Shown piece after piece: positions 11,779 through 60,235 of a stretch of 64,000 bases of DNA. The position numbers and the translations under genes were made by a program. The notes under the pieces are model-generated. The model made no database searches. It saw only the letters and a list, made by a program, of their open reading frames with translations, and was not told the origin of the DNA. Numbering within the stretch: the first letter of the stretch is position 1; every line of letters begins with the position of its first letter. Source of the stretch: a virus (lineage: Duplodnaviria; Caudoviricetes); IMG/VR virus record IMGVR_UViG_3300035501_000471; one strand, written 5' to 3'.

Positions 11779-12507
11779 ATGGCTAAGAAAAAAGTTAAAG
11801 AAGTCAAGCAAGAAGCAGAGATTGTGATTGATAAGGATCCAATAACTCTCCTACCATTGCAATATCGCAATGAAAAACAAAGAATCCTCAGAGATGTAAT
11901 TAAGAACCATGACATTACAATAGTAGATGGATGTGCTGGAACAGGTAAAACATTCATTTCCATATATGAGGGATTATATAAATTACTATGTCGAAAATAT
12001 GATAAATTAATTTTGTGTAAGTCTGTCACAACAACACCGGGAGAGGACATTGGTTATATACCCGGAACAGTTGAAGAAAAAATGACACCTTATATTTTAT
12101 CATTTAAGGGTAACATGGAAAAGGTGTTTGAGAAAGAAGAACACGTAAAACGACTTTTTGACAATAAAATGATTGAAGTTTTACCTTTGGCTTACATTAG
12201 AGGTGTTACATTGGATAATTCATTTATTGTGATTGATGAAGTTCAAAATATTAGTATGGATTTATTCAAGTCAATCATCACGAGAATTGGAGATAATTCA
12301 AAAATGGTGTTTTTAGGTGATATTGAACAATGTGACTTTAATAGTGATAAGAGAAAAAAACAAAGTGCATTACAACATATCATAGAGATTTTTAAGGATG
12401 ATGAAGATGTGGGTTGTGTCCATTTTGAAGATGATGAATGTGTGAGAAACCCCATTATTCCTAAAGTATTGAATAAACTGAGAGAATTTGAGAAAACAAA
12501 AAATTAA
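11779..12507 (+). CDS. phoH: PhoH-family ATPase
   Basis: GCAGTGKT, IGYIPG, PLAYIRG, IDEVQN, GDIEQCD, VRNP. Confidence 0.93.
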   Translation: MAKKKVKEVKQEAEIVIDKDPITLLPLQYRNEKQRILRDVIKNHDITIVDGCAGTGKTFISIYEGLYKLLCRKYDKLILCKSVTTTPGEDIGYIPGTVEEKMTPYILSFKGNMEKVFEKEEHVKRLFDNKMIEVLPLAYIRGVTLDNSFIVIDEVQNISMDLFKSIITRIGDNSKMVFLGDIEQCDFNSDKRKKQSALQHIIEIFKDDEDVGCVHFEDDECVRNPIIPKVLNKLREFEKTKN

Positions 12508-13129: not shown

Positions 13130-14854
13130 TTATTTCTTTATATATTCTGAAAATGTCATCACTCGAAATGATTCACTCACATTATTATCTAAAATTTCTG
13201 GAATATTCTTCTGTCCATTTTTATTTGCTGAGTGAACAAAATACTTAGGGATAGGTAAATCATTTTCTTTACAATATTTAACCAACCACTTAGCACAGTC
13301 TTCACCATCTGGGTAGTCATTACCTTTTTCAATTCCATTACCTTTCTTCAAATCTCTATCAAATGAAATAAATTCAGGTAGTCCATTAGTTTCAATATAA
13401 TCTCTGAACTCATCTAAATTTTTAACCCATTTGAATTTTATATTTTTATATTTAGTATGGAGGTCATCATAGAATTTTTTGTTTCGTTGATATGCTCCAC
13501 TTTTACTTTCTTTACTCAAATATACTTCTGGGTTTCTTTCATCATCGAGCCATAGAATTTTCAAAGAATCATCATCGGTTAAGTCAGTTGTTTCCTTGTC
13601 TATTTTATCTATAGTTTTTTCAACAGTTGTAACTTCTACCTTTTCCGGTTCTGGATTTTTTAGTTCTTCTTTCTTATTTACTTTTTTTGGTTTCAGTTCA
13701 TCTTTAAGTGATTCGTGATGACCATAAACAGTTTTGGGAATAACCGCTAATGTAATAGGAAGAATTGATTTTACTCCATATTTTTGAAGTTCCAAGCAAA
13801 TGTCATCAAGGGTAGCTCCTGAAGAAATATTATCATCAAAAATTACAACATTCTTACCTTTGAGTTTTTGTTGGATACCATTTAAGTTAGGATTTATTTC
13901 AAACAAACCCTCAATAGAACGTCTTTTACTATCTTCCAATGACTTTATTTCAAAATTCTTAGCACGACCATCAGAACCTATTGTTTTATCTTTACCTCTA
14001 CGACCTTTTCTCAAAATCTTAGCTTGGTCTTGAAGATTTGCTAATAGTTCCTCTTTTTGTTTGAACTCTCTTGTAGGTCTTCCTTGTTTTCGATTAGCCT
14101 TTGTGTATAGAATTTCATCTTTCAAGTCATCAATCTTCAATCGTAGTTCGTACAAATCAGCATCTTTTTTCCAATGTTCAATATCTTGTTGTAGTTGGTA
14201 AATGTCCTTATCAGTCAATCCAACTTCATGAGCTTGTTCATAATTGATATATACCTTACGAATGTTTTTCGTCATTAGGTCAGGGATACATTTAATACCC
14301 GGTGAATCTTTATAACCTCTTAATATATATCCAACCATTTCTTTATTAAATGCTGATGAACTTTGAGGATATGTAATAATGTCAATAGGATTTTTCTTCA
14401 ATAGTTGACGAATATATAATGATGTACGTTTCATAAATTTGTCAATACTATCAAAATCAATATTACGATTTTCAAGTTCAGAATATTTGGTGGGGTGTTT
14501 TAGGGCCTTGGAAGCTCTCATGTCAGACAGTCTATAAAGATTGTATGATGTGACTCCACTTTTCTTTAATGGTACTTCAACAAAATCTAACTTTTTGGTT
14601 TCTGGATTAAAAATTCTGGTTGATGTTGAATCTGTATCATTTTTACCGGGCACGAACTTAAATGTTCTATCACCAGATTTTGAACCATGTGAAAAACCTT
14701 CTTCAAGTTCATCATCAACACACAACTCATCATAACCCATTTCATGTTCAGCATCCATTAACATTTGGATAAAATCAATGGTAGATATTCGATTATCTTC
14801 AAATTTCATATCTTTATCTTGACCTAATTGGAAATCTTCAAAAGATTTAATCAT
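13130..14854 (-). CDS. Phosphoribosyltransferase-domain protein fused to a cyclic-phosphate-processing receiver-like domain
   Basis: PRPP-binding loop VVIFDDNISSGATL; C-terminal ILWLDDER...ISFDRDL...DGEDCAKWL...VHSAN. Confidence 0.7.
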   Translation of the reverse strand: MIKSFEDFQLGQDKDMKFEDNRISTIDFIQMLMDAEHEMGYDELCVDDELEEGFSHGSKSGDRTFKFVPGKNDTDSTSTRIFNPETKKLDFVEVPLKKSGVTSYNLYRLSDMRASKALKHPTKYSELENRNIDFDSIDKFMKRTSLYIRQLLKKNPIDIITYPQSSSAFNKEMVGYILRGYKDSPGIKCIPDLMTKNIRKVYINYEQAHEVGLTDKDIYQLQQDIEHWKKDADLYELRLKIDDLKDEILYTKANRKQGRPTREFKQKEELLANLQDQAKILRKGRRGKDKTIGSDGRAKNFEIKSLEDSKRRSIEGLFEINPNLNGIQQKLKGKNVVIFDDNISSGATLDDICLELQKYGVKSILPITLAVIPKTVYGHHESLKDELKPKKVNKKEELKNPEPEKVEVTTVEKTIDKIDKETTDLTDDDSLKILWLDDERNPEVYLSKESKSGAYQRNKKFYDDLHTKYKNIKFKWVKNLDEFRDYIETNGLPEFISFDRDLKKGNGIEKGNDYPDGEDCAKWLVKYCKENDLPIPKYFVHSANKNGQKNIPEILDNNVSESFRVMTFSEYIKK

Positions 14855-14897: not shown

Positions 14898-15668
14898 TTA
14901 CCACAGGTTGTTAGTTTCTTTGAGGTAAAACTCTTTCTTAACTCGTTCGACTGAAATGTCATAGTAGTTTTTACTTATTTCAGTTCCTATGTATTTTCTG
15001 TCTAATCGTTCACAAACAGTACAAGTTGTTCCTACTCCTGAAAATGGATCATAAACGACATCATTTTTGAATGTGAATAGTTTTAATATTCTTTCAACTA
15101 ATTCTTCAGGAAACATAGCAGGATGACCAAACTCTTTCATCCTTCTTTCAGGTGATATATTCCACTTAGCGGTTGTCCATTTCTTAAACTCATCAGGAAC
15201 TATACTTATGTTTTCTTTATCACCAATATGTTTAGGATTATTTTTGAAGAAATACTCGATATATTCCCATGTACTTTTTAGATATGGTTTTGACGGACTA
15301 CACCAACTACCCCAAGCAGTAACAGGACAATTATAATTATTTTTTTCCCATATTATTTCACTCCCCCAAGTAAGACCACACTTAGTTAAAATGTTAGATA
15401 CTATATGATGTGTTGGATAATTCACTGTAAATATTGGTTGAACATTCACAAAAATTCGACCATCATCTTTCAAAATCCGGGCACATTCTTCAAATACTTT
15501 AGTCAACCATTCTTCATATTGGACTGGATTAAATGTGTCATCAAAACTATCATACTCCTTTTCAAACATATATGGTGGACTGGTAATAATACAATCTACA
15601 AAATTATCAGGTAGAGTTTTCATAAATTCCAAACAGTCCTCATTATATATTTTATTCAACTCTACCAT
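14898..15668 (-). CDS. DNA amino-methyltransferase, beta class (probably N4-C)
   Basis: TSPPY motif IV, HPAMFP, DPFSGVGTT motif I. Confidence 0.9.
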   Translation of the reverse strand: MVELNKIYNEDCLEFMKTLPDNFVDCIITSPPYMFEKEYDSFDDTFNPVQYEEWLTKVFEECARILKDDGRIFVNVQPIFTVNYPTHHIVSNILTKCGLTWGSEIIWEKNNYNCPVTAWGSWCSPSKPYLKSTWEYIEYFFKNNPKHIGDKENISIVPDEFKKWTTAKWNISPERRMKEFGHPAMFPEELVERILKLFTFKNDVVYDPFSGVGTTCTVCERLDRKYIGTEISKNYYDISVERVKKEFYLKETNNLW

Positions 15669-16444
15669 AATTGATTTCCTTTATCATGTAGAAGAACCTC
15701 TATTCTTTTGTTAGCCAAGTTAAAGTATTCTTCTGTTATTTCAAATCCTATAAATTGTCTATTTGTGTTAATACAAGCTACCGCAGTTGTTCCACTTCCC
15801 ATACAGTTATCTAAGACTACTTCATTTTCATTTGTATAGGTCTTAACCAACCATTCAATTAATTCAACAGGTTTTTGTGTAGGGTGTTCTTCTCCATTAC
15901 ATAGGTGTTCTTTTTTGATTTTGACAACTGAACGAGGGAACTTATATTCACTTATTATAGGATTAATTACTCTGTCAAAATTACCATAACATTGATTTTT
16001 ATCTGTGTGTTCACCATTACCTATTGGATGATTCTTTCTATCAGGGGCATATTCCATTTGAGGATTATATGTACCAAGTTTTTTATAGAATACCATAATG
16101 TCCTCATGACTTCTCATAGGCATCCGTTTAGCATTTAAGAACCCCGTAGGTCTATCCTTTTCCCAGATTAAATTATATCTCCACAATGATGGGTTAGATG
16201 TCATTAAATTGGCTGAGAACATCCCCTGACCAAATAACACAATGACACCCTTATCTTTAATTATCCTTTCATATTGTTCCCATAATTGGTCAAAAGGTAT
16301 AACTGAATCCCACTTGGCGGATTTATTTCCTTTATTTAAGACACCATAAGGTAAATCACAACAAATCATATCAATGGACTTATCAGGTATTTTTGACATT
16401 CCAATGATACAATCTTCATTATATATTTTATTTAACTCTACCAT
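15662..16444 (-). CDS. DNA N6-adenine methyltransferase, beta class
   Basis: CDLPY, HPTQKP, DNCMGSGTT. Confidence 0.9.
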   Translation of the reverse strand: MVELNKIYNEDCIIGMSKIPDKSIDMICCDLPYGVLNKGNKSAKWDSVIPFDQLWEQYERIIKDKGVIVLFGQGMFSANLMTSNPSLWRYNLIWEKDRPTGFLNAKRMPMRSHEDIMVFYKKLGTYNPQMEYAPDRKNHPIGNGEHTDKNQCYGNFDRVINPIISEYKFPRSVVKIKKEHLCNGEEHPTQKPVELIEWLVKTYTNENEVVLDNCMGSGTTAVACINTNRQFIGFEITEEYFNLANKRIEVLLHDKGNQLW

Positions 16445-17319
16445 AAATTTGTTTCTTCATCATAACTTAAATAGAGGGATTCATAAACCATTGCATTTGA
16501 ATCCTTACCTATTGTCCTTTTGAAAGATGAATTACCAGATTTGATATATAAGTGATGATTATAACATTCAGTTGGAACATTACAAGTATTATCCACGTTA
16601 CCTGATTTTCCATCAAAAGACATAATGAACTTTATGTTATTTTGTTTTAATTTACTTAGTTCAGAAAAAAATTTGTCAAAGTCCAATCCACCAAAATACA
16701 TTCCCTTTGTGTTAAAATAAGGAGGATCCAGATATAGGAAATCATTTATCTTAGCCTGTGAAAATATATCTTCATATGAACAATGTCTGAACTCAATATC
16801 AACTTTATTTAACTTCTCAGACCATTCTTGTAAAATTGGTTGGAGATTATCAGGTGTTATGCCGTTTCTTGTTAAATGAAAAGAGTTATTAAATTCACCA
16901 TTTTTATTATATCTGGGCATACCATTAGTAGTTGTCCTCATAATAAAAAAGAAAATAAATGGATTGTGAGTTTTATTATATTCATCACGTTTCTGTTCAA
17001 AATATTTTCTTTTTATATCAACATCAGAAGTGGAATTTAGTTCAGTCCACATCTTTTTATATTGAGACATTATTTCATCCGGACAATTTTTTATTTTGTT
17101 CCATAGTGAAATCAAGTCACCATTTAAGTCAGAACAGACAATCTTTTTTACTGATATATCACTGTCTAACAACATTCTCATCATTGAACAACCACCACAA
17201 AATGGTTCATAATAAGTATCAATTTGTTGAGGAAAATATTGTATAATTTCCTTGGCTTGACTTCGTTTACTACCAGACCACTTTATGATTGGTTGAAATT
17301 TACCACAGACTTTGTTCAT
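16438..17319 (-). CDS. Dam-like (D12 class) DNA adenine methyltransferase
   Basis: KWSGSK, YEPFCGG, YLDPPY. Confidence 0.9.
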   Translation of the reverse strand: MNKVCGKFQPIIKWSGSKRSQAKEIIQYFPQQIDTYYEPFCGGCSMMRMLLDSDISVKKIVCSDLNGDLISLWNKIKNCPDEIMSQYKKMWTELNSTSDVDIKRKYFEQKRDEYNKTHNPFIFFFIMRTTTNGMPRYNKNGEFNNSFHLTRNGITPDNLQPILQEWSEKLNKVDIEFRHCSYEDIFSQAKINDFLYLDPPYFNTKGMYFGGLDFDKFFSELSKLKQNNIKFIMSFDGKSGNVDNTCNVPTECYNHHLYIKSGNSSFKRTIGKDSNAMVYESLYLSYDEETNLW

Positions 17320-18148
17320 CTTTATGGTTTTTTAATGTTAGACCTTTGATATTTTCATAAAGATATTTGTATAACTTCATGACTGATATTTTCTTACTTG
17401 AAATTGAATTAGCATAGTTTCTTATTACATCAAAATCAAGTAATTTCAACATCTCTGATTTAATTCTTTCATCAGTACAATAGAAATAAACTTCCTGTGC
17501 AAACTCACCTATATGGGATGGTCTTTTTCCTAAACAACCATTTCCCCAATTACACATAGAATAACAAAAATCAGGTGAAATATCTTTGTTTTTACCTGTC
17601 ATATAATCACCATTCTTTCTACGATGTTCAATGATAGTTATTTCATTTAATTCATAGTTGGGTTTACTATTTAACTTACCTGATTTTGGTCGACGATAAA
17701 TGTTAAAACAACAATGTAAATCTCTATCTGTATAATGAGCTAATCCTAAATCCTCACTATAAATCAAATCAAATTTATATAACTTAATATCATTGTTGTA
17801 ACATGAAATTGGTAAAATGAAAGCAACATAATCACCTTCTTCCACACATTTGTTATAGAAATCTTGTATCAATTTATTGTGGACACCAAAAGGAGGATTA
17901 CCAATGAATAATCGACCTTTCTTATATGTTAAATTTAGTTTGAGAAAATCAGCTTGTATTATGTTTTCAGATTCAGGAACAATGTCATAAGCGATGCATC
18001 CTTCTATTTGATTAGAGAAAGAACCATCACCAGCACTTGGTTCGATTACTTCTGTTATGTTGTCTTTACCTATAATGTCAAAGGTTTTTTTAATTAACCT
18101 TTTAGATAGGTCAACAGAAGTATAGTATTTGTCATTATTAATCTTCAT
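17300..18148 (-). CDS. DNA N6-adenine methyltransferase, gamma class
   Basis: DKYYT, IEPSAGDGSF, IGNPPFG, FILP. Confidence 0.87.
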   Translation of the reverse strand: MKINNDKYYTSVDLSKRLIKKTFDIIGKDNITEVIEPSAGDGSFSNQIEGCIAYDIVPESENIIQADFLKLNLTYKKGRLFIGNPPFGVHNKLIQDFYNKCVEEGDYVAFILPISCYNNDIKLYKFDLIYSEDLGLAHYTDRDLHCCFNIYRRPKSGKLNSKPNYELNEITIIEHRRKNGDYMTGKNKDISPDFCYSMCNWGNGCLGKRPSHIGEFAQEVYFYCTDERIKSEMLKLLDFDVIRNYANSISSKKISVMKLYKYLYENIKGLTLKNHKDEQSLW

Positions 18149-18488
18149 CCTTTATTAGTAAATTTTTCAACTTCTCATTAAACAAAGCGTCAGCACCTTT
18201 TTCTTTATATATATCAATAAGTTTCTTTCGGGTTTCTTTATATGACTTTTTCCATTCCTCTGATGCTTTGATTTTCTTTTGAAGTCTCAATTTTTTTTCC
18301 AATCGCCTCAAGTAATCAACAGCACTTCCTTCTTTTTTTCCTTCGATATTTCTAACTCGATTAAGTACATCTAAAACAGCGTGTGTTATACCCTGTTCTG
18401 ATGTTTTATATTCATCATCAATCTCCACACCATCTTCTAATGGTTCAGAGATTACATTAGTGCTGTTAATTAATTTATCTAATTTCAT
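18138..18488 (-). CDS. Chimeric mini-protein built from pieces of 20781..22766 and 22769..24679
   Basis: First half is near-identical to the N-terminus of the vWA protein; second half is near-identical to the C-terminus of the metallopeptidase. Confidence 0.7.
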   Translation of the reverse strand: MKLDKLINSTNVISEPLEDGVEIDDEYKTSEQGITHAVLDVLNRVRNIEGKKEGSAVDYLRRLEKKLRLQKKIKASEEWKKSYKETRKKLIDIYKEKGADALFNEKLKNLLIKDED

Positions 18489-18640
18489 AACTTAAAAATA
18501 ACAAAAGGCTGATGAAAACCTCACCAACCTTTAATACATTATATAAATTTAACTATATCAAATTCCAAAAATTATCATCAACAAATTTTTGAAACTCACT
18601 ATCTAATGGTTTCATATCTTTTAATATTGTTGAGATGAAA

Positions 18641-19528
18641 TCAGACAAAATCCTCTGGTCTGACTCCATACATTTCATAGTAATCTGCAACTCCACATTC
18701 GAGGTCATCTTCACTATATGTAGTTTTTATATCTTTGAAATCAAGTCCAATTTCTTCATCGGTAACTTCACCATACATTTCAAGGTCATCATTATCACAA
18801 TATATAGTTAATTTACTAAATCGAATTTCACCATCACACCAATATTCACCATAACTTCTACGTGAACCAGAAGTCCACACATCATATTCTGAATTTATAA
18901 GACAATTACCTACTGATAATTCTATTTCATCTTCAAATTCAGTCGTTTCATCCATATCCTCACGATATTCAAAATCAAAATTTAGATGATTTTCAATAAT
19001 ATTATAAAGTTCTTGAATATCATCTTCTGTCAATGTCTTTTTCATCCACTCTACAAAACGACGATGTTCAATAACATCTCTTTTTTCTTGATGTTTTTTA
19101 TGGATATCATCATAGTTATGGATTTCCTTATTAGATTTTCCTCTATATCTATCCATATGGTGGTCTTTATCTTGACCGATATGACGTTTATTCCTTTTTT
19201 GTATCAGTTTTTTTACTTCTTCACCATTATCTTTCCACCAAACAGAGAAGATTTCCATATTACCTATAACAACACGATAACCATCTTGTAAGTCTATACA
19301 AAATGTTGCAGGATTTTTGTCATCACCATTATCATACTTTTCACAATACTCATGGAAATCTTTAACAACATCTATAATATCATCATCATGAATATCATAC
19401 AAAAGAGGTTTATCCCACTCATATTTTGGTAAACCATGTTGTTTTATAATGGCTCTCAATTTTCCACTTTGAAAACCTTCATTTAGTGAATTTAGTTTTA
19501 AAAAATCAGAAAAACTTAAAACGTTCAT
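18641..19528 (-). CDS. Hypothetical protein, probable internal head protein
   Basis: Late promoter at 19550-19557; MNVLSFSDFL...LNE|G leader. Confidence 0.6.
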   Translation of the reverse strand: MNVLSFSDFLKLNSLNEGFQSGKLRAIIKQHGLPKYEWDKPLLYDIHDDDIIDVVKDFHEYCEKYDNGDDKNPATFCIDLQDGYRVVIGNMEIFSVWWKDNGEEVKKLIQKRNKRHIGQDKDHHMDRYRGKSNKEIHNYDDIHKKHQEKRDVIEHRRFVEWMKKTLTEDDIQELYNIIENHLNFDFEYREDMDETTEFEDEIELSVGNCLINSEYDVWTSGSRRSYGEYWCDGEIRFSKLTIYCDNDDLEMYGEVTDEEIGLDFKDIKTTYSEDDLECGVADYYEMYGVRPEDFV

Positions 19529-19562
19529 TTCAATAAGTTTATTTTACCATATTTATGAAAAT

Positions 19563-20735
19563 TTACCAAAGTTTTTCTTCATCTGACTTTTTAACTTCTT
19601 TTTTATCAGGTATTTCAGTTAAACTATTATCTATGGCATACTCTATTCTGGTCTTGGCTATTGGTAAGTAATCTTCAGTTATTTCAATACCTATGTAGTT
19701 ATAATTAGCATCTCTATCATAATTCTCACTCATCACTGCTTTTCCTGTTGAACCAGAACCATTAAAACAATCCAGCACAGTTCCACCTTTAGGTGTGACT
19801 AATCTAACCAAGTATTTCATCAAAGAACAAGGTTTACAGGTTGGGTGAAAATTCTTACGGGCAACTCCGCTTCTATTAAACTGATTATTGGCTGATTCTA
19901 ATTCAGGATTTCTATCACTTTTGACAACCAATTCAAAATCATCTAAACCCTCATCTCTATCCCTACGAGAAGCCTTGGCACAGTAAAAATACCTATATTC
20001 TTCGTTAGGAAATCCTTTACATACTTCATTGTCATCTTCATCATAAGTGAGTATTACATTAGCTGGAAATCTACCTTCATCTATTGTTCGTTCACCTGTC
20101 ATTGGTTTCCATCCACCATCATAAGCTTGCCATTTTTCTATTGATTCATCTGTCATCCTATTATAAGCATTCATATTAAACTCATAATTGGATTTATCTT
20201 TTTCACCTGTAATTGGTACTCGACATTCTTCAATATTAAGGGCACCAACATTGTTATTATACATATTATCAATCAGAGAACCTTCAAATGGTTTTCTGGC
20301 GATAATAATAGGTTCATATGCTGGTTTTAGAGCGTTTCCATACTTATATAATTCACTATCGACTGGATGACCTAATTTCTTTTCTAACATTTTACCAACA
20401 TTAGAACTTTTAGGCATACCACTACCATATAACCACATAATAGTATCTCTTATTTCAAAGCCTGCATCTTCAATCGCACACACCATTCTATGAAATGTTC
20501 GAGTGGCACAGAAAGCTACCAAATATCCACCGGGTTTCAATACTTTAAGACAAGTTTTCCAAGTTTCGGGGTTGAGAGTAATTCCTGTATTATCCCATTT
20601 ATTAGACAGGAAATTTAGTTCATATGGTGGATCACAACAAATGGATGTTATACTATTTTCTTCTATAACATCCAACATATCCATCATGTCACCATTATAT
20701 AATTTATAGTTTTTTCCTTCTGAGTATAACTTCAT
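19563..20735 (-). CDS. DNA N6-adenine methyltransferase, beta class
   Basis: CDPPY, GRFPAN, HPTCKP, DCFNGSGSTG. Confidence 0.9.
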   Translation of the reverse strand: MKLYSEGKNYKLYNGDMMDMLDVIEENSITSICCDPPYELNFLSNKWDNTGITLNPETWKTCLKVLKPGGYLVAFCATRTFHRMVCAIEDAGFEIRDTIMWLYGSGMPKSSNVGKMLEKKLGHPVDSELYKYGNALKPAYEPIIIARKPFEGSLIDNMYNNNVGALNIEECRVPITGEKDKSNYEFNMNAYNRMTDESIEKWQAYDGGWKPMTGERTIDEGRFPANVILTYDEDDNEVCKGFPNEEYRYFYCAKASRRDRDEGLDDFELVVKSDRNPELESANNQFNRSGVARKNFHPTCKPCSLMKYLVRLVTPKGGTVLDCFNGSGSTGKAVMSENYDRDANYNYIGIEITEDYLPIAKTRIEYAIDNSLTEIPDKKEVKKSDEEKLW

Positions 20736-20780
20736 TATATTACTATTTTGTTAACTTAAAAATAACAAAAGGGGAGATTT

Positions 20781-22766
20781 TTAAACCTCCCCTGATATAT
20801 CATCTTTTTCTAATTCTGAAATTTCTGTTGTTACGACTTGTTTTATACCAGCAATATCTTTTAGGTATCCAATCTCAGGTCCCAATATTCTTTCAGCGAA
20901 GTCACCCCAACTCTTATCATAATATACTAAACAAAGTATATCTTTCAAATATCTTGAACAATTCTGTTTTAGATATTTTGGGTCTTTGGGGTTACTATAA
21001 CTTGTTGCCCACAGACCATCACCAAATATAAAGATAGGACAGTCATGGTTTCTTCTTTTCAATTTAAGTATCTCTAATGACACCGCTTCAAAGTTTTCAA
21101 TTCCACCACCGAGTCCTTGATCAGATATAAATTTCCAGATGTCTTTTAATAGGTCTTCAAACTTAGCCTTGTTTCTAATATCTCTTTCTTTTACCTTATA
21201 TGGTTTAGATAATCTTTCACCAAATCCATATATATTTACTTCATTAAATGCTAACTTTCTACAAAAATCCAAAACTCTCTGTAAAAATGTAAATACTAAT
21301 GGTTGAGATACAGAACCAGAAAAGTCAATGAAACAATTTATCTGTTCAATCTCACCACCAGCAGGAGATGATTTAGGTAACACAGCATCTCTCCAAAGGT
21401 GTTTTTTATCACCCCATGTAGTTTTCTTATACTTAGATGAACTTGTTCCTGACCTCTTTGATTTAGAACGTAAGAAGATTTTAACCATTTCTTTCCATTC
21501 CATATTAGTTATCTTACCTTTCAGAACACCACGAAGAATACCTTTTGCCAATGATGAACCAGACTTTCCAGACTCAGCGGCTTTCTTTTCAAGTTCTTCC
21601 GCAGCCTCCTTAGCAATAGTTTCATCATCCTCCATTTCATCTGATGTGTCTGTGTTTTTGTCCTTTTTCATTTTTTCAATGTCTTTTGGATCAAACCCAC
21701 CTTTTTTCATATCATCGGTAAATAGGTCATCATCAGGAGCATCTTCCAATGTTTCACCAGCTAACTCACCAGAACCAGATTTAGTTTCATCTGTTGCTTT
21801 GTCAATATCTTCTTTCAAATCACTGGCTTTTTCTTCTGAGGATTTACCATCTTCACTGTCACCAAAAGAATCCTTCATTTTATCAAGTAATTCTTTTTCT
21901 GATGATGAACTTGTCCCCTCTTTAGTTCTATCAAGTGCATCCTTTATCTCACTTTCCAATGAATCATAATCTTCTGAATCATAATCTATTGTGTCATCAT
22001 AGTCAACATCATCATCAGAACCATCACCAGAATCCCCACTTGATGAACTTCCACTTGTTCCTCCATGTGAACTTGATGAACCACCTGAAGATTTACTACT
22101 ACTTCCACCTGAACCTTCACCTTCGGAATCACCATCATCAAAGTCACCATCTTCATCTGAACCACCTGAAGAACTATCATCACCAGAATCATCTCCAAAG
22201 TCCCAGTCATCATCATCTCCAAGGTCATCATCATCTCCAAAATCACCATCTTCATACTCATCTTCATCATCACCACTGGGAGAAGAACCACCAAAATCAT
22301 CACCTTCTTCATCACCAGTTTCACCATGACGAGAATCAGAATCATAATCGAAATCATCAAATTCAAAATCCGGTTCATGTTTGTCAGATTCATCATCTTC
22401 ATCATCCTCAGATTTTGGATCCTCTAATTTTTCAATGTCATCCATATCATCCATAGTTGATGACTTAAATAATGAACCATCACCATCACCTCCAGCACCA
22501 CCATCGTCATAAGGTTTATCTGTCACACTGTCAGTATCATCACCACCGGGTTTTTCACCACCTGTATCATCACCACTTCCTTCTTTCTTTCCTTCGATAT
22601 TTCTAACTCGATTAAGTACATCTAAAACGGCTTGTGTTATACCCTGTTCTGATGTTTTATATTCATCATCAATTTCCACACCAACTTCATCACCATCTTC
22701 TAATGATTCAGTGATTACATTAGTGTTTTTAATTAATTTATCTAATTTCTCAAAAATACTTTCCAT
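20781..22766 (-). CDS. Acidic low-complexity region plus vWA-like (DUF2201 C-terminal type) domain
   Basis: Long D/G/S-rich tract; MIDAS-like FIDFSGSVS; GGG; IFIFGDG. Confidence 0.72.
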   Translation of the reverse strand: MESIFEKLDKLIKNTNVITESLEDGDEVGVEIDDEYKTSEQGITQAVLDVLNRVRNIEGKKEGSGDDTGGEKPGGDDTDSVTDKPYDDGGAGGDGDGSLFKSSTMDDMDDIEKLEDPKSEDDEDDESDKHEPDFEFDDFDYDSDSRHGETGDEEGDDFGGSSPSGDDEDEYEDGDFGDDDDLGDDDDWDFGDDSGDDSSSGGSDEDGDFDDGDSEGEGSGGSSSKSSGGSSSSHGGTSGSSSSGDSGDGSDDDVDYDDTIDYDSEDYDSLESEIKDALDRTKEGTSSSSEKELLDKMKDSFGDSEDGKSSEEKASDLKEDIDKATDETKSGSGELAGETLEDAPDDDLFTDDMKKGGFDPKDIEKMKKDKNTDTSDEMEDDETIAKEAAEELEKKAAESGKSGSSLAKGILRGVLKGKITNMEWKEMVKIFLRSKSKRSGTSSSKYKKTTWGDKKHLWRDAVLPKSSPAGGEIEQINCFIDFSGSVSQPLVFTFLQRVLDFCRKLAFNEVNIYGFGERLSKPYKVKERDIRNKAKFEDLLKDIWKFISDQGLGGGIENFEAVSLEILKLKRRNHDCPIFIFGDGLWATSYSNPKDPKYLKQNCSRYLKDILCLVYYDKSWGDFAERILGPEIGYLKDIAGIKQVVTTEISELEKDDISGEV

Positions 22767-29425: not shown

Positions 29426-30280
29426 TTAGAAGTTCAAGTATAAACTTTCAAACACATTTGTCTTTTCTACATTTTGTGTTGTCACCCTAAAACCTCCATA
29501 AGTTGATTTAATATTCACTTTATTTTCATAACAATCACCGGGTACAATAATCTCATTCTTTTCATTATCATAAGACACAGCATACCTTATTCCTTCTTCA
29601 TTCATTATTCTTAATCTGTCGAAGAAATCAATGTAATCTATCTTACCAAAATATCTACCTGTATTTCTCGTGAGTTCATATGGTGGATCCAAATATAAAA
29701 AATCACCATCTTCAACTTGGTCAAATATCACATTATAATCACATCTTCTAAATTCGATGTTATTACCTTTTACAATACTGTGCCAATTCCATATATCTCT
29801 CTCTAACCTTTTTGGTTTTATTCCATCACGAGTCAAATGAAAAGTGTTGTTAAATTCCCCATAACCATTATATCGAGGAATACCATTAGTCGTTGTCCTC
29901 ATCAAAAAGAAAAACAAATAAGGACTTCTTGTTTGATTAAATTCATCCCTGACTTCCTCAAAATATTTACGTTTGTCTTGTCGGTCAGTAATCTCTTTCA
30001 TCTTACACCACATCTTAGTGTATTCCTTCAACAACCCCTTTGGATCATTCTTTACTGTGTTCCATAAATCTATCAAATCTCCATTTATATCAGAACACAC
30101 TATTTTATTTATGTAGGTGTGATATTCTTTCTGTGAACATAACAACTGATATATCACTGAACATCCACCACAAAAAGGTTCATAATAAGTGTCAATATAG
30201 TCCGGAAAATATTTTATTATCTCCGCACTCTGTATTCTTTTTGAACCTATCCATTTTATCACTGGGTTGAAACCACTCAT
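29426..30280 (-). CDS. Dam-like DNA adenine methyltransferase (paralogue of 16438..17319)
   Basis: KWIGSK, YEPFCGG, YLDPPY; shares MRTTTNG.PRYN..GEFNN.FHLTR with the paralogue. Confidence 0.9.
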   Translation of the reverse strand: MSGFNPVIKWIGSKRIQSAEIIKYFPDYIDTYYEPFCGGCSVIYQLLCSQKEYHTYINKIVCSDINGDLIDLWNTVKNDPKGLLKEYTKMWCKMKEITDRQDKRKYFEEVRDEFNQTRSPYLFFFLMRTTTNGIPRYNGYGEFNNTFHLTRDGIKPKRLERDIWNWHSIVKGNNIEFRRCDYNVIFDQVEDGDFLYLDPPYELTRNTGRYFGKIDYIDFFDRLRIMNEEGIRYAVSYDNEKNEIIVPGDCYENKVNIKSTYGGFRVTTQNVEKTNVFESLYLNF

Positions 30281-34097: not shown

Positions 34098-34145
34098 ACT
34101 ATAATTTTTCTGTAATAAAGATAACAAAGAGGGAGGTCTTTTTTA

Positions 34146-34300
34146 CCGTATATTAAAATCTGAACAAAATTAAACTTGTTCACTTTTAACTTCTTGTTTC
34201 AACCTACCACTACTTTTTAGGTTCAAAGATGAACGTTCATCCATAGTTGGGTAGTCCACAAGCGTGAATTCGGTTGTACTGCAACCTATTATTCTTTGAC
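34146..34300 (-). ncRNA. Putative TnpB omegaRNA (reRNA) scaffold overlapping the tnpB 3' end
   Basis: Position matches the known TnpB architecture; boundaries are approximate and inferred. Confidence 0.45.
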
Positions 34301-35411
34301 CTTCTTCTAAGATGTTTAATGATGCATTATAGTCACGTTCTATAATAGAACCACAGTTTGGACAAATCCATTGTCTATCACTTAGTTTAAGTGACTTATT
34401 TATATAACCACAATGATTACATCTCTTAGATGAAGGATAAAATCTATCAACGAAAACTAATCGTCTGTTATACCATATACTCTTGTATTCAAGTATTCTT
34501 CTAAACTCACCAAAGTTTAGTTCAGATATTGAATCTGAAAGTTTATGATTTTTAATCATTCCTTTTACATTTAAGTCCTCCATACAAATGACTTGGTTTT
34601 CATCAATTAATGAATTACTTACTTTATGTAAATAGTTTGATTTACGATCAGTTATAGTTTTATATACTTTTGCAAGTTTCTTTCTTGCTTTGTTTCTGTT
34701 GTTAGAACCTACTTTCTTTTTAGAAAGTTGTCTTTGAAGTTTCTTGATTTTCTTATATTCAGATTTCTTAAAGTGTAGGTTTTCAAAAACCTCACCGTCT
34801 GAGGTGATAACGAAGTCTTTGACTCCAAGGTCAATACCAACCATGTTAGTTGTGTCTTTGACTTTATGAGTTAAACAACCATCAACTAAGATTGATAGGT
34901 AATATTCACCACAGGGTAGTTTACTTAAAGTCGCTGATTTAATGTTTGACTTATTATCTTGAAGATACTTTGAGTATAACTTACTACATTTGAATTTGAT
35001 ATTTTTAATGTTAGCAAGTGATATCTTATAAGATAAATAGTTATTTCTCTTAGAAATAGCTTCTACTGGAAACCTACAAGACAACTTATTATCATGTTTT
35101 GATTTAAATTTTGGATAACCAGTATGACGTTCAAAGAAATTTTTATAGGAATCTAACATATCCATTATGGATTGTTTTAGAACCTTAGTATTTTGTTCCT
35201 TTAACCAAAGGAAATCTGGATTATTAATCAAATCGTGGTGAAACCACTTACTAATAGAAGTTAAATTTTCTGTTTTTCTTTCAGTTTTATAAGATTCTAT
35301 TTTATGAGCAAGACATTGATTATAAACAACACGACAACAACCAAGGAGTTTGTTGATTTGAACTTCTTGAGTCTTATTTGGATATAATCTTATTTTAACT
35401 GCTCTGTACAT
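34170..35411 (-). CDS. tnpB: RNA-guided endonuclease TnpB
   Basis: KIRLYP HTH, GIDLGVK RuvC-I, MEDLNVKGM RuvC-II, CNHCG/CPNCG Zn finger, RDYNASLNI RuvC-III. Confidence 0.93.
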   Translation of the reverse strand: MYRAVKIRLYPNKTQEVQINKLLGCCRVVYNQCLAHKIESYKTERKTENLTSISKWFHHDLINNPDFLWLKEQNTKVLKQSIMDMLDSYKNFFERHTGYPKFKSKHDNKLSCRFPVEAISKRNNYLSYKISLANIKNIKFKCSKLYSKYLQDNKSNIKSATLSKLPCGEYYLSILVDGCLTHKVKDTTNMVGIDLGVKDFVITSDGEVFENLHFKKSEYKKIKKLQRQLSKKKVGSNNRNKARKKLAKVYKTITDRKSNYLHKVSNSLIDENQVICMEDLNVKGMIKNHKLSDSISELNFGEFRRILEYKSIWYNRRLVFVDRFYPSSKRCNHCGYINKSLKLSDRQWICPNCGSIIERDYNASLNILEEGQRIIGCSTTEFTLVDYPTMDERSSLNLKSSGRLKQEVKSEQV

Positions 35412-36768: not shown

Positions 36769-38028
36769 TTATATACTTAAAGATAACAAATCTACTATTT
36801 TTTCAGTGATTTTTTTGACCATTATTGTTTCATCTTCATCCTCCCAAACGACCATTGTAGTAAAACCGGCATCCGTTATGGTTTTCATTTTTTGTTTGTC
36901 ATAATTAAGTTTCTCATCATAACTCTGATTTGTATATAGTCCTTTCCATTCAGTATCACCATCTTTTGGATGAAACATAAGACCATTATATTCGACACAA
37001 AACTTAATGTCAGGTATTACAAAATCATAGAAATAAGGTCGTTTATATTGGTGATCCCACTTACCAAACTCATGTTCACCATAATATATCTTATCAAAAT
37101 GTATATCTTTCTTATTTAATACATCTATAACCTTTTCAAATAATTGTCTTGATGATTTACTGTATGAACATCCGGTATTTGATGATTGTACTTTCTTTTC
37201 CAACATTGATTTAGACCATTGTTTCTTCCTTTCTAAAAACTTCCTAATACCATCCTGTTCACCATATTTCTTTATATAGTTATCTACTGTATTGGTGGTT
37301 TGGATTTCTTTAACTTTTTTAACAGCTTCTTCTTCACTTAAACCTCTTTTCAACCAATATTCAACGGAACGACAAGTAACTCCTTTTTTACCTTTTCTTT
37401 TAGAGTTAGATATAGAAGAAGCGAACTTTAATCTTTCTGTATGTGCTGACTTGGCTTCCTCTAATGTATAAAGTTTACCTGTTTTTGGATTAATCTTGTC
37501 CAAAAAATACTCATACTTAAAATTTTTGGTTTTCTTTTGATTTATTTCATCTATGTTGGGATTGTTTTTGTAAGTTTCATTTCTTCTTTCTTGATAGTCA
37601 TTATACTGAGTTTCCCAATCATCACCATATTTTTCTTTGAACTTATCTTTTGAAACCGTATTTTGTCTTTGGTGAATCAAATCATCAATATATTCTTCTT
37701 TATAACATCTATTTGTATAATATATTCTTCCGACTGTTGATTTTGTATTTTCCCACATATCTTGACTAAAAACTAAATATGGTTTGATACGATTTGTTTG
37801 GAAAGTATTTTTGAAATTTCCACTATGTTCAGTAAAAAAATTGACATACTCTTTATACATTTTATTTAATTTGTCAACATTCAACATAGGTTCATGAGGG
37901 AAATTTAATCTATCTTGACATATCTGTTTGAATTTGTCTATTTTAACTGGTTCTGAAATTTCCTTAGCCGGTCTCGAGCCATAAATGAAAAATAACTCAT
38001 TTACATAACTCTTTTGATTTATATTCAT
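36769..38028 (-). CDS. Homing-endonuclease-like protein (same subfamily as 31935..33098)
   Basis: VEYWLKRGLSEEEA, YIKKYGEQDG, FYDF...VEYNGLMFHP, VVWED. Confidence 0.75.
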   Translation of the reverse strand: MNINQKSYVNELFFIYGSRPAKEISEPVKIDKFKQICQDRLNFPHEPMLNVDKLNKMYKEYVNFFTEHSGNFKNTFQTNRIKPYLVFSQDMWENTKSTVGRIYYTNRCYKEEYIDDLIHQRQNTVSKDKFKEKYGDDWETQYNDYQERRNETYKNNPNIDEINQKKTKNFKYEYFLDKINPKTGKLYTLEEAKSAHTERLKFASSISNSKRKGKKGVTCRSVEYWLKRGLSEEEAVKKVKEIQTTNTVDNYIKKYGEQDGIRKFLERKKQWSKSMLEKKVQSSNTGCSYSKSSRQLFEKVIDVLNKKDIHFDKIYYGEHEFGKWDHQYKRPYFYDFVIPDIKFCVEYNGLMFHPKDGDTEWKGLYTNQSYDEKLNYDKQKMKTITDAGFTTMVVWEDEDETIMVKKITEKIVDLLSLSI

Positions 38029-46222: not shown

Positions 46223-47035
46223 TTACCAGAGTCCCCACTCAGCTAAGGCTTCATAACCACCGATTTGATTAATATATTCCTGAGCGATTTGAACAATTTC
46301 ACCATAGGGTCGGCCATCAACAAAATGATCACCAATAGCACATGAAAGTTCCTTAGTTTTACCTGTACGTTGTGCCTCTAACCAACAGTAAATGTTAAGT
46401 GTCACATCTGATTTACTGATATCCTTACCATGAATACCACCACCAGTTACACTATGTCCCATGTCACTACCAAGTTTACGATTAACCGCACCAGTATCTA
46501 CATTTTGAGAACCAGTCCAATAACCAAGAGGATTAATGGTAATTGTGTATTGGGGGTAAGCCTTATGGAGATGTTCATACAACTTATCTGTATCTTCGAG
46601 ATGACTTTGACACACAATAAGTTCTTTATCCTTTTCATTGAGGACATATTTACCATCAGTAGGATAATCATTATAGATGTCCTGAGCAATGGTAGTCAAT
46701 GTCATTTCCTCATCCGTCAAAGGAACACCCTTAAAAATACCATTATCACCACAACGATAATCTACACTTTGATTCTCCGCCAAGTGTTCATCCTGTGGAA
46801 CACAAATAAACTTCAACTCAATACCTTCGCCCGCGATACGATTTACGATAGGTTGTATATCATCAACTGTGAGGTCAACTGATGACTCTGCGATAATTGT
46901 ACAATGGCCATGACCAATTAGACCTTCTACTGCAATCTTAGGGTTTGTTTGTTTAGTGTAACACAAATCAACAATGGCTCCGGCGATTCTATCCATAATC
47001 TTGTCCGGATGACTGGGATTTACTTTTTCTATCAT
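46223..47035 (-). CDS. metK: S-adenosylmethionine synthetase (short form)
   Basis: EKVNPSHPDK, AVE, GDNG, DGK, INPLG, DTGAVNRKL, GGGIHGKDISKSD. Confidence 0.88.
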   Translation of the reverse strand: MIEKVNPSHPDKIMDRIAGAIVDLCYTKQTNPKIAVEGLIGHGHCTIIAESSVDLTVDDIQPIVNRIAGEGIELKFICVPQDEHLAENQSVDYRCGDNGIFKGVPLTDEEMTLTTIAQDIYNDYPTDGKYVLNEKDKELIVCQSHLEDTDKLYEHLHKAYPQYTITINPLGYWTGSQNVDTGAVNRKLGSDMGHSVTGGGIHGKDISKSDVTLNIYCWLEAQRTGKTKELSCAIGDHFVDGRPYGEIVQIAQEYINQIGGYEALAEWGLW

Positions 47036-49327: not shown

Positions 49328-50188
49328 TTATGCGAAACGAACAGGGGTAAGAACCACATAGGTCTTCACATTGTCATCATCAAAGCTAACAAACTTGATT
49401 TTGTTAGAATGGAATTCAATGTTGTAGAACTTGTCACTGTCAATCCATTCAAAATATTGTTTGTTGAAACATCCAAGGTAGTTTTCCACACCTTCACTGG
49501 CGGTAAACTCATTGTGGATAAGTTTCTTGTCATACAACTTGTCGAATTTTTGGAAACCAACAAAGTCATTGTCTTGAATAAGGTCATTAACCGTACTACG
49601 AACATTTTCGTCGGTTGATTCAATCTCGCTGACAACAATACTGTCACCATTTACAAGATTGAAGAATACACGAACCGAATCTTTATTCAAACCGAACAAA
49701 CCACGAAGTTTCTTGAACTCGGTGTCTGTGATACTAACTGAACATTGAAGTTTAGATGTATCTTCAAAGATTGAGAATCGTGCGGTTTCAGGAATTTCAA
49801 GGAAGTCAACAGCTTCTTTATCAGCACAGTTAACAGTTACATTCATTTCTGAGTTCTTAACTGTCAACTTCTTAGCATAGTTGTTGTCCTCAATATCAAA
49901 CACCATGTCAACAGTATCTTCACCTACAAGAGTGAGGGTAGTGATAAGTTTAGTCGCATTTGAGAACTGAATCTTAACAGGTTCATCAAATGGATTAGTA
50001 AATTCATCACACATGGTTTCGATGTCAGCAGATACTGATTTAAGAGCTGACTTGTTACGGTTATACGCGGTTGATTCAAACTTACTACCATTTAGGGTAA
50101 CAAAAATGAGGTTATCCATAGAGGCACTTCGCTTAATCAAAGAGGCGAATTGTTTGGTTTTTACACCTTTCAATGAGATTTTTTTCAT
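49328..50188 (-). CDS. Probable DNA polymerase sliding clamp (gp45/PCNA-like)
   Basis: 286 aa with an apparent two-domain alpha/beta pattern ending in a hydrophobic strand; carries the replication-class promoter. No diagnostic motif, so this is an inference. Confidence 0.55.
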   Translation of the reverse strand: MKKISLKGVKTKQFASLIKRSASMDNLIFVTLNGSKFESTAYNRNKSALKSVSADIETMCDEFTNPFDEPVKIQFSNATKLITTLTLVGEDTVDMVFDIEDNNYAKKLTVKNSEMNVTVNCADKEAVDFLEIPETARFSIFEDTSKLQCSVSITDTEFKKLRGLFGLNKDSVRVFFNLVNGDSIVVSEIESTDENVRSTVNDLIQDNDFVGFQKFDKLYDKKLIHNEFTASEGVENYLGCFNKQYFEWIDSDKFYNIEFHSNKIKFVSFDDDNVKTYVVLTPVRFA

Positions 50189-57799: not shown

Positions 57800-59275
57800 T
57801 TACCACAATCCTGATTCAAATCCCATTCCAAAATCAATAGGTGAATATCCCATCGCTGTCACAATTCGATTAATCGGTCCCAACACCAACAAATCAAACA
57901 TTCTACCCATGTCTATATCAATATCACTGGCTAAGTCCATTGGGAATAAACCCGCAGGATAACTAAAGGCTTCACATTGGGCAAGTGACATTATGTTTGT
58001 ATATACTTCATAAGGTTTACCGGAAGTAGGTCTAATCAATTCAGTTTCATTATTCAACAACTTATACTGTTCTGGGTTTCTAAGATAGTCACTTACTTTT
58101 ACCTGACTTTCCAGTTTCCAATAAGTATATCGTTTTGTTGGTTTGATATAGACAACACAAAGTTTATCACTATCTACCAAGACCGAATATTTTTTCTTGT
58201 ATTTTTCATTATTATTCAACATATAGTTATACAAGGCCGCTCCCTGAACAGTTACCATTGATTTAGGTCTTAGTTCTATTTCGTTGGTATCATTCATCAC
58301 ATACTGTTCATACTTGTTCATACCCTTATTAACACTAATTGTATCAACATTCTGTAACATGAACTGTTTTCGGACTTTTGACACTTCCTTGGCAAAGTTA
58401 TCAAATACAAAGTTTTCCTCTTTGAAAATCCATGTAACAAGGTCTGTCAGTTGTTTTTTAACCCAAGGTGAACTTGATGTTTGAGCAATTTCCACACCAG
58501 TTGCCTTAATCTTAGAACAACTGTCATAATACACATTTGGTTCAGCCCATGTTACATTCTTGATATATTTCTTCTTAGCCAACCAAATACCCGCTTCATT
58601 ATACGCCTCCAATTCAAAGTCAAGAATGTTAGGTGTTTGGTTATCCTCAGCATATTTCTCATGTATCTTTTTGAGGAAGTCATGCATGAATACTCTATCT
58701 AATGTCAAACAAAACTCACGACCAGCAGGTTCAATTTCATCAATCTCAAACTCATATTTATCAGTATCAATCTTATCAACTTCAAAATAAGACTGTGCAT
58801 CTTCTAATGTAGGATAACCCCCTTGAGATACATACATGAATGATTTTAAGTCTGTTGCTTTCTCAATTTTTGTCAATCTCCAGACATTGTGGTCAAACCA
58901 ATCAGTCACATTAATGATTTGTTCATAAGAGGCATATATACTGTCAGTGTCAATATAAACACTGATATTCTGTTTAATTGGATTCTCATCTAAAATTTTG
59001 ATTCCCATTTTTTTGTGGGTTTTTGTGTCTTTTTGCCAAACTTTCTGAGCCCACTTATTCATCAAAACTTCCGCGTTCAAGATTACGTTCTTACCTTGCT
59101 TAGTAACTGACTCTGCGATGTTCTTATTATAAAAGTAGAACCCTGAGAACCCAAAGGCACCATATATTGAATTGATTAGAATCTTACTTGACATCTGATA
59201 GTTATTGTAAATGTCAGCTTGTGTTGCACAGTAACCAATTATCTTTTCAACTTTTTTTCGTGTTTCTTCTGTCAT
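57800..59275 (-). CDS. Family B DNA polymerase, C-terminal subunit (gp43B-like)
   Basis: KILINSIYG, YIDTDS, KKKY, GVE. Confidence 0.9.
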   Translation of the reverse strand: MTEETRKKVEKIIGYCATQADIYNNYQMSSKILINSIYGAFGFSGFYFYNKNIAESVTKQGKNVILNAEVLMNKWAQKVWQKDTKTHKKMGIKILDENPIKQNISVYIDTDSIYASYEQIINVTDWFDHNVWRLTKIEKATDLKSFMYVSQGGYPTLEDAQSYFEVDKIDTDKYEFEIDEIEPAGREFCLTLDRVFMHDFLKKIHEKYAEDNQTPNILDFELEAYNEAGIWLAKKKYIKNVTWAEPNVYYDSCSKIKATGVEIAQTSSSPWVKKQLTDLVTWIFKEENFVFDNFAKEVSKVRKQFMLQNVDTISVNKGMNKYEQYVMNDTNEIELRPKSMVTVQGAALYNYMLNNNEKYKKKYSVLVDSDKLCVVYIKPTKRYTYWKLESQVKVSDYLRNPEQYKLLNNETELIRPTSGKPYEVYTNIMSLAQCEAFSYPAGLFPMDLASDIDIDMGRMFDLLVLGPINRIVTAMGYSPIDFGMGFESGLW

Positions 59276-59278
59276 CTT

Positions 59279-60235
59279 TCAATCTTTGTTTAAACCTGTT
59301 TTTATTTTTTCAATATCAACTTTTCTCAATATCACAACATTATTATCTAACATACATTGATGTTTCAACTCATATATATCATCCATAGTTCTATCATATG
59401 GATTTATCATTTTATTACCTTCAAAGAATTGATCACCTTTTACTTCATATAATTTACCTTCTATCAAAAAGTCCGGTTGATAAATTTTCTCCTTTCCTTT
59501 ATAGTAGTATTTGAATTGTATATTAGGTTGATATTCAAAATTTAAGTTGTGATTGATACAATATTGATAAACTATAACTTCCCAACCAGAATCAAAAGTT
59601 AATCCATTATATTCAACTCGTTTATGGTGATACTTAGCATACTCATTTGTCTGTGTGATATTTTCGACACCATATCTCTCTAAACAAGTTTTCTTTATCT
59701 TTTTAACAATTTCTGGTATTTTAGTGATATGTTCAGTTCCATATTTTTCTTTTATCACTTTCTTAGCTTGTTTTTGAATTTCCTTTACTGAGAATGGTGA
59801 AGATGATTGTAATTTCTCACCATATTTCTCAGATAAAGTATTCAACCTTTTTTCTTTAATTTCATCACCTTTGAACTTATAAATGTTTAGTAATGATTTA
59901 GAACATGATTTCTGGATTTTCTCTCTCACTTCATTATCATTATTTGAACATTTCCTCGAACAGTATTTTGAGTAACTGTTATTGTGAAATTCTAGTGATT
60001 GTCCACAGGTTTTACATACAGGTGGAATTTCAATATGATTTACTAACCTATATAAACTCTCTCTTAAATATTCTTTATCTTTGACTGAGAGTGAATTGTT
60101 ATCATATCTATTAACCACATATGTATAAAACCCATGACTTTTAAGAACTGATTCTAAACATCTTTGGGGGATAAGTTTACCTTTTGGAGCGATATAACTT
60201 AATACAACATCATCATTCAATATTGTCAAGTCCAT
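59279..60235 (-). CDS. Homing-endonuclease-like protein between the polymerase halves
   Basis: CKTCG..YCSRKC, TCLERYG repeats, YQPDFLIEGKLYEVKG. Confidence 0.78.
   Translation of the reverse strand: MDLTILNDDVVLSYIAPKGKLIPQRCLESVLKSHGFYTYVVNRYDNNSLSVKDKEYLRESLYRLVNHIEIPPVCKTCGQSLEFHNNSYSKYCSRKCSNNDNEVREKIQKSCSKSLLNIYKFKGDEIKEKRLNTLSEKYGEKLQSSSPFSVKEIQKQAKKVIKEKYGTEHITKIPEIVKKIKKTCLERYGVENITQTNEYAKYHHKRVEYNGLTFDSGWEVIVYQYCINHNLNFEYQPNIQFKYYYKGKEKIYQPDFLIEGKLYEVKGDQFFEGNKMINPYDRTMDDIYELKHQCMLDNNVVILRKVDIEKIKTGLNKD

Follow-up and report, generated by a model that had tools for sequence, protein, structure and literature searches.

In bacteriophage T4, the family-B DNA polymerase gp43 binds the sliding clamp gp45 via its C-terminus. 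The T4 proteins gp33 and gp55 similarly bind gp45 through their C-termini, while a C-terminal QL[SD]LF constitutes the bacterial beta-clamp motif and, in mammals, the DNA methyltransferase (MTase) DNMT1 is recruited to PCNA in a manner mediated by a PCNA-interacting peptide (PIP) box (PMC9690074). Here we consider a 64 kb stretch of viral DNA (hereafter the window; Caudoviricetes, IMG/VR record IMGVR_UViG_3300035501_000471) that encodes five DNA MTases ending in Leu-Trp (LW), as does the phage's own family-B DNA polymerase (PolB). The original prediction held that the MTases ride the sliding clamp by means of the polymerase's tail. Following further analysis, we favour as probable, with some reservation, that an L-[W/F] tail docks the polymerase, a gp33-like protein and the MTases on the phage's own clamp, resulting in clamp-tethered, replication-coupled methylation. 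A literature search found no paper tying phage or prokaryotic DNA MTases to clamp-binding motifs.

Metagenomes contain a large clade of relatives of the window phage (230–410 kb), two of which are near complete and were compared whole: G001 (363 kb) and G003 (345 kb). Of the open reading frames (ORFs) of 60 amino acids (aa) or more in the window, 7 out of 56 terminate in LW-stop, compared to ~0.05 expected from amino-acid composition (~0.9 per 941 ORFs). The seven correspond to five MTases of three classes, the C-terminal half of PolB and a short S-adenosylmethionine synthetase (MetK). Both the set and the Leu codons previously listed are as claimed, with CTG, TTA, TTA, CTG and CTT used by the MTases, TTG by PolB and CTC by MetK.

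The MTases are all encoded on the minus strand. The first (14898..15668) is an N6_N4 enzyme of 256 aa (Pfam PF01555, E 2e-47), with the domain ending at residue 240 and the penultimate Leu encoded by CTG; the G001 orthologue is 75% identical and also ends in LW, while that of G003 ends in LF. A second N6_N4 MTase of 260 aa (15662..16444; PF01555, E 1e-31) ends TTA-TGG-TAG, overlapping the ATG of the next gene, and has a 64% identical orthologue in G001 that ends in KLF. It is adjoined by a D12-class Dam MTase of 293 aa (16438..17319; PF02086), to which a linker and LW are appended, and by an NPPF-type DNA MTase of 282 aa ending in LW (17300..18148; phrog_5172, E 4e-28; phrog_799 'DNA methyltransferase', E 6e-12). 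The fifth enzyme, an N6_N4 MTase of 390 aa containing an insert (19563..20735; PF01555), has its domain end at residue 361, followed by ~25 polar residues and LW. The N6_N4 and D12 identities rest on PF01555 or PF02086 matches above the gathering score in both window genes and relatives. In general, the tail follows a linker that extends past the catalytic fold, with Pfam domains stopping 10–29 residues short of the C-terminus.

The Dam enzymes provide the internal control that had been proposed from the window. A tail-less D12 Dam paralogue (29426..30280, minus strand; PF02086) and its G001 and G003 orthologues stop right after the fold. An alignment reveals that the tailed lineage, represented in four phages, consists of the core common to the tail-less paralogue, 4–9 variable residues and an invariant LW.

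Counting beyond the window, as had been called for, confirms that the tail is concentrated in MTases. Across the window, G001 and G003 (941 ORFs, the set from which genome-wide tail counts were taken), 18 LW and 20 LF ends were observed, compared to 0.9 and 3.4 expected by composition. An L-[W/F] end occurs on 16 of 21 MTases and on 22 of the 920 other ORFs, corresponding to an odds ratio of 131 and a p-value of 2.5e-20 that ignores shared ancestry, the MTases counted belonging to unrelated classes. The LW motif as first described is hence real but too narrow, with L-[W/F]-COOH the more accurate form. In 72 non-redundant tails, L is present at position -2 throughout, followed by either W (38) or F (34) at position -1. 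Polar residues of variable identity occupy the six positions ahead of these, and six Leu codons are in use, leaving only the last two positions fixed. As judged from these sequences, the tail is under selection at the protein level, with linkers and Leu codons varying.

While the window encodes five tailed MTases, relatives contain ten or more per genome. In G001, the proteins terminating in LW are PolB, five N6_N4 MTases confirmed by Pfam, the Dam orthologue and a 248-aa protein that has no Pfam match. These eight genes (the LW ends having been tallied as seven) form one cluster beside the clamp gene. Further G001 MTases end in LF, including one of the phrog_757 type located elsewhere in the genome. 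Across the clade, tailed MTases comprise N6_N4, D12, NPPF-type, phrog_757-type and split C5 enzymes. The C5 MTases are encoded as separate ORFs, with an N-terminal part of ~240 aa and a C-terminal part of 73–177 aa (G003 129728–133487; G001 66159–67550). According to later Pfam runs, G003 encodes one C5 N-terminal part and three alternative C-terminal parts in a row, all ending in L-[W/F]. The N-terminal part ends in ELW in G003 and its 57% identical G001 homologue is tail-less; the G001 homologues of the C5 parts are without L-[W/F] ends.

PolB carries the tail across the clade. In the window it is encoded in two parts on the minus strand: an N-terminal half (60213..61700; PF03104, PF00136) that contains the exonuclease and the start of the polymerase domain, and a C-terminal half ending in GLW (57800..59275; PF00136). 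G001 and G003 encode an unsplit PolB, to which the N-terminal half is 72–77% identical. PolB is a T4-type family-B polymerase, with tblastn matches annotated as gp43, the nearest in GenBank or cultured phages being only ~25% identical. PolB always ends in L-[W/F] in the two near-complete relatives and in ten further related contigs, and does so in 118 of 120 database homologues (109 LW, 9 LF), with the preceding residues differing between subclades. Two cultured phages with related polymerases, Chryseobacterium phage MA9V-1 and Flavobacterium phage MaF61, were found to have no N6_N4 MTase, and their PolBs end in MEL and PLF, respectively. The window gene is split by a free-standing homing-endonuclease gene (59279–60235; phrog_3339), while most relatives have an unsplit PolB of 976–981 aa. 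In a further relative (L026), a 636-aa insert gene interrupts PolB at this same position, and some database PolBs have an intein-type Pfam match (PF14890).

Directly adjacent to PolB, a conserved and divergently oriented gene (61815..62375, plus strand) encodes a 186-aa protein ending in KLF that is a candidate gp33-like clamp client. This protein ends in L-F in 8 of 8 aligned phages. The C-terminal domain was predicted by AlphaFold2 with a per-residue confidence (pLDDT) of 85–93. When compared to 48,161 chains using the wide mode of VIA-align, the top match was the late-transcription co-activator gp33 of T4 (3tbi_A; root mean square deviation 2.3 Å over 70 of 71 residues) with a middling Z of 6.2, followed by a next match with Z 4.5; a Z under 8 in this method can reflect a common helical arrangement. 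Neither Foldseek against the PDB nor a sequence profile returned a gp33 match.

The proposed docking platform is a 286-aa protein (49328..50188, minus strand), which had been put forward as a putative clamp. This assignment is upheld by the predicted structure: the AlphaFold2 model (mean pLDDT 91, predicted TM-score 0.86) shows a PCNA fold with two topologically repeated beta-alpha-beta-beta-beta domains, and Foldseek ranked whole-chain PCNAs of archaea and eukaryotes at the top of its PDB matches (E 3e-14 to 1e-12, TM 0.63–0.77). The ORF has no Pfam or PHROG match. Phages of the G001 subclade have the clamp gene next to the MTase cluster and PolB. G001 additionally encodes a gp44-like AAA+ loader (Gp44_lid, RFC box), a gene that lies outside the region covered by the window. 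A conserved 159–175-aa protein ending in GLF or TLF (G001 167943–168422; G003 37212–37739) was considered as a gp62 counterpart on a weak lead from a feature search and left unassigned: Phage_clamp_A is present on only 12% of the members of one cluster, PF16790 was found in neither G001 nor G003, and the neighbours are not loader genes. In most relatives, the PolB and clamp genes flank a gene for a second conserved protein, of 223–256 aa (L034 9187–9951; G001 139937–140683), which matches neither Pfam nor PHROGs, always ends in SLF, ALF, PLW or SLW, and has no homologue within the window.

Complex prediction, which had been proposed for each tail, was carried out for one, using a clamp trimer (stoichiometry assumed) and the C-terminal 35 residues of the 390-aa MTase. 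This yielded a score of 0.42, compared to 0.00 for the best of three controls, providing weak support for binding. Of 80 solved complexes, 58 attain the pass mark, as do 2 of 110 mismatched pairs; scores of 0.60 or under account for only 7 of the 80 solved complexes that pass, but for both of the passing mismatches. The individual runs share at least 64% of contacts, with a partner pLDDT of at least 39.

Taken together, we infer from these sequences that the tail binds the clamp and couples methylation to replication. In the proposed mechanism, L-[W/F]-COOH on a short, variable polar linker would constitute the clamp-interaction peptide of the clade, carried by the gp43 homologue, the adjacent gp33-like protein and nearly all orphan DNA MTases. 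The gp44-like loader would place the trimeric PCNA-fold clamp on DNA, allowing the peptide to enter the hydrophobic pocket of the clamp. MTases would thus be gathered on clamps located at the fork or trailing it, with nascent phage DNA methylated at many specificities before host restriction enzymes cut. Joint expression of MTase and replication genes could be achieved via a shared promoter-like motif. The original proposal is strengthened by the conservation of the tail on PolB and unrelated MTase classes, the candidate gp33-like carrier, the PCNA-fold clamp, the gp44-like loader and a parallel in coliphage RB49 described below, but physical binding finds weak support in a single prediction.

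Several observations weigh against tethering to the clamp. In the complex prediction the partner is poorly folded (pLDDT ~40) and no interface is reported; the pass may stem from likeness to PCNA-peptide complexes already present in the PDB. The candidate gp33 assignment leans on a middling Z obtained for a small helical domain. L-[W/F] is also present on some proteins without an evident link to DNA, such as an IspD-like enzyme and a nucleotidase, where it may have arisen by chance, and is missing from some MTases (the core Dam, one N6_N4 enzyme ending in PLI and an Eco57I-like protein). Co-variation of W and F between PolB and MTases within a genome was looked for and not found; in one phage PolB ends in PLF while its MTases end in both LF and LW. 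As W and F are interchangeable without such co-variation, there is no within-clade co-evolution signal pointing to one partner. No characterised clamp motif is, moreover, as short as this two-residue anchor, and the tails fit neither the PIP-box (Q at position 1, aromatic pair at 7–8), with no conserved Q among the 72 tails, nor the QL[SD]LF form, with Q not enriched at -5 in the same set. Finally, 5–10 clients competing with the polymerase for three clamp pockets raises a traffic problem. It is possible that clamps left on finished DNA, by analogy to T4 late transcription, might serve the extra clients.

Tail conservation and enrichment show that there is a shared partner, not its identity, and the weak prediction with the clamp leaves room for the tail to dock on another replisome hub, such as the single-strand-binding protein, the helicase-primase or a scaffold. 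Methylation would still be replication-coupled. C-terminal aromatic residues do mediate replisome contacts other than those with the clamp, as seen for T7 gp2.5 and gp4, which contact the polymerase in this manner. We nevertheless consider a different hub unlikely. Both tailed proteins with T4 counterparts (PolB/gp43 and the candidate gp33-like protein) correspond to C-terminal clamp clients in T4 (for gp33, PMC9690074), an RB49 MTase carries the gp43 tail, remote homologues of the window MTases bear the beta-clamp form of the motif, and the controls of the complex prediction scored 0.00.

A tail acting as a stability or turnover signal, either as C-terminal degron or as protection tag that times the abundance of replication-phase enzymes, appears very improbable. 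Bacterial proteases recognise non-polar C-termini, the tailed genes are apparently co-expressed from one promoter type, and a hydrophobic residue likewise follows WGL at the end of the short MetK. In contrast, docking anchors typically show such a strict final W/F after L, borne on a flexible polar linker; a degron seems costly on the essential polymerase, which is tailed in nearly all homologues; and different tails recur on the polymerase/MTase pair in RB49. We give least credence to a functionless tail, arising as by-product of gene cassettes having inserted beside the polymerase gene, or else of translational coupling (TTA-TGG-TAR gives an overlapping ATG-GTA start): two window MTases and several in relatives do end TTA-TGG-TAG over the next ATG, and MTase genes often lie right behind the PolB or clamp gene, but LW ends without overlap and with other Leu codons are found on PolB and on three of the five window MTases, LF ends are unable to make an ATG, the window's tailed MTases are ~40 kb from PolB, and the tail is kept while linkers diverge. 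Start-codon overlap was hence rejected as the cause of LW, as was an insertion scar, given no DNA similarity was found between PolB and MTase 3' ends; the tail set, the codon usage and this lack of 3' similarity largely refute a by-product.

A docking function predicts that the peptide changes with the lineage while the pairing of MTase and clamp-type motif recurs, and this is what is seen in other systems. In coliphage RB49 (NC_005066), DLFDI-stop occurs in exactly two genes, gp43 and RB49p143, the latter annotated as DNA methyltransferase and placed between baseplate genes 8 and 9. We know of no publication that assigns a function to the RB49 DLFDI tail. The remote homologues of the window's first N6_N4 MTase, as sampled by the 150 best 50%-identity representatives, include 13 that end in LF, 8 of these in the QxxLF form; Q is thus found at -5 in 8 of 13 LF-ending homologues, compared to 5 of the remaining 137. 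In a phage-like region (L070) on a contig from a metagenome-assembled genome labelled Sericytochromatia, a nucleotide-metabolism module that includes RNR, ThyX and dUTPase genes also encodes three MTases, of two classes, with QKxLF ends, one with an extra N. These tails are similar to the bacterial beta-clamp motif, which suggests the same tethering logic, using the host clamp. It is conceivable, if on balance slightly doubtful, that phages and mobile elements generally copy the local clamp-binding peptide onto MTases, a phenomenon not previously described: L-[W/F] in the present clade, DLFDI in RB49 and QxxLF for the host beta clamp. The clade would then be an extreme case, with 5–10 or more enzymes of up to five classes on one clamp serving as a main anti-restriction device.

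A promoter-like motif links the units concerned. The motif TTTGTTATNTTTA has 11 exact matches in the window, all close upstream of ORF starts, at an ORF edge or between ORFs; 16 matches were found when allowing one mismatch, compared to 4.0 expected. An exact match (TTTGTTATTTTTA, 18493..18505, minus strand) is located at the head of the operon that runs from 18488 to 14898 and comprises a 116-aa gene and four MTases. The motif also occurs at 20757 (390-aa MTase), 47069 (MetK), 50227 and 50287 (clamp) and 61750 (PolB), with further sites at 61779 (PolB neighbour), 36778 (UvsX) and 46167 (SbcD-like). The shared motif described for the MTase, MetK, polymerase and clamp units is therefore borne out by exact matches upstream of each. 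The tail-less Dam was said to lack this promoter, and while no motif lies directly upstream, co-transcription from the motif at 34116 is possible. The motif, promoter-like by its sequence, supports co-expression of the MTases with replication genes. At the head of the MTase operon, the 116-aa gene (18138–18488, minus strand) has its first ~50 residues nearly identical to the N-terminus of a neighbouring 661-aa acidic protein (20781–22766, minus strand). An N-terminal module thus appears, from sequence, to have been duplicated ahead of two different genes.

The short MetK (46223..47035, minus strand; phrog_1569, PF00438) ends in WGLW and had been included as a local S-adenosylmethionine supply on the clamp. 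This part of the proposal is not supported, as LW is one variant of a family-wide WGL plus hydrophobic end and has not been appended. In 120 homologues, the last residue after WGL is I (31), W (23), F (22), V (20) or Y (16), an ending intrinsic to the family and not restricted to L-[W/F], and the full-length MetK of G001 is without such an end. The short MetK was therefore dropped as a member and, judging by these C-termini, is probably outside the system.

The window derives from a jumbo myophage of low GC content (~31%) and is part of a contig that represents ~22% of a genome according to CheckV. Megablast against 50,697 phage records returned no match for the MTase region. Structural genes include those for portal, sheath and prohead protease, and replication and repair genes encode a UvsX-like recombinase, an SbcD-like nuclease and a DnaB-like helicase in addition to the split polymerase. 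Six tandem paralogous genes (~480–507 aa; 47755–49248 and 50313–57766, plus strand) lie either side of the clamp gene, sharing common N-termini and without Pfam or PHROG match; in relatives, their position is taken by another multi-copy family of 160–430 aa with a shared MKKLSKIDES-type N-terminus. A TnpB/IS605 OrfB-type gene (34170–35411, minus strand; HTH_OrfB_IS605, OrfB_IS605 and Cas12f1-like TNB domains) is placed within the replication block, with UvsX on one side and the helicase operon on the other. Auxiliary genes encode a formate/nitrite-transporter-like membrane protein (38467–39093, minus strand) and a PhoH-like ATPase (11779–12507, plus strand). In a 574-aa protein (13130–14854, minus strand), a phosphoribosyltransferase-like segment is joined to a cREC_REC receiver domain.

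If the tails do bind the clamp, phage orphan MTases would be replisome-associated, similar to animal DNMT1, as opposed to free-diffusing. This would account for full protection of a 350-kb genome, at many specificities, in the course of one infection cycle, and loss of the two-residue tail is predicted to sensitise the phage to host restriction. It would also establish that two residues suffice as a minimal anchor on a PCNA-like phage clamp, and provide a rule for recognising clamp clients in uncultured phages, as proteins with the same C-terminal peptide as the polymerase.

Among the closest described systems is that of T4 and RB69, where gp43, gp33 and gp55 likewise present an extreme C-terminal hydrophobic peptide common to the family-B polymerase and other clients of a trimeric phage clamp. 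The clade likewise has a tailed protein with a candidate gp33-like fold and, in a relative, a gp44-like loader. In contrast, the peptide is L-[W/F]-COOH only as opposed to LDFL-type, the 286-aa PCNA-fold clamp has no sequence match to gp45, and the main clients are DNA MTases, which are not known as gp45 clients. RB49 resembles the clade in that polymerase and MTase of one phage share an end, and differs in having one MTase, a longer DLFDI tail and a genuine gp45 system. The bacterial beta-clamp motif QL[SD]LF is similarly C-terminal and ends in L-F, whereas the window tails have no conserved Q at -5 and the phage has its own PCNA-like clamp. Archaeal and eukaryotic PIP-box clients (Qxx[I/L]xxFF) share the PCNA-fold clamp and a short hydrophobic motif that is often C-terminal, but the window tails contain neither the Q nor a PIP-spaced aromatic pair, with only the final L-[W/F] conserved. 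The likeness to DNMT1-PCNA lies in the recruitment of an MTase to a sliding clamp for methylation of newly replicated DNA. DNMT1 is, however, a single maintenance C5 enzyme, in contrast to the many orphan N6, N4 and C5 phage enzymes with a presumably anti-restriction role, and it is the scale of the MTase set and the two-residue terminal anchor that would distinguish the phage system from this known analogue.

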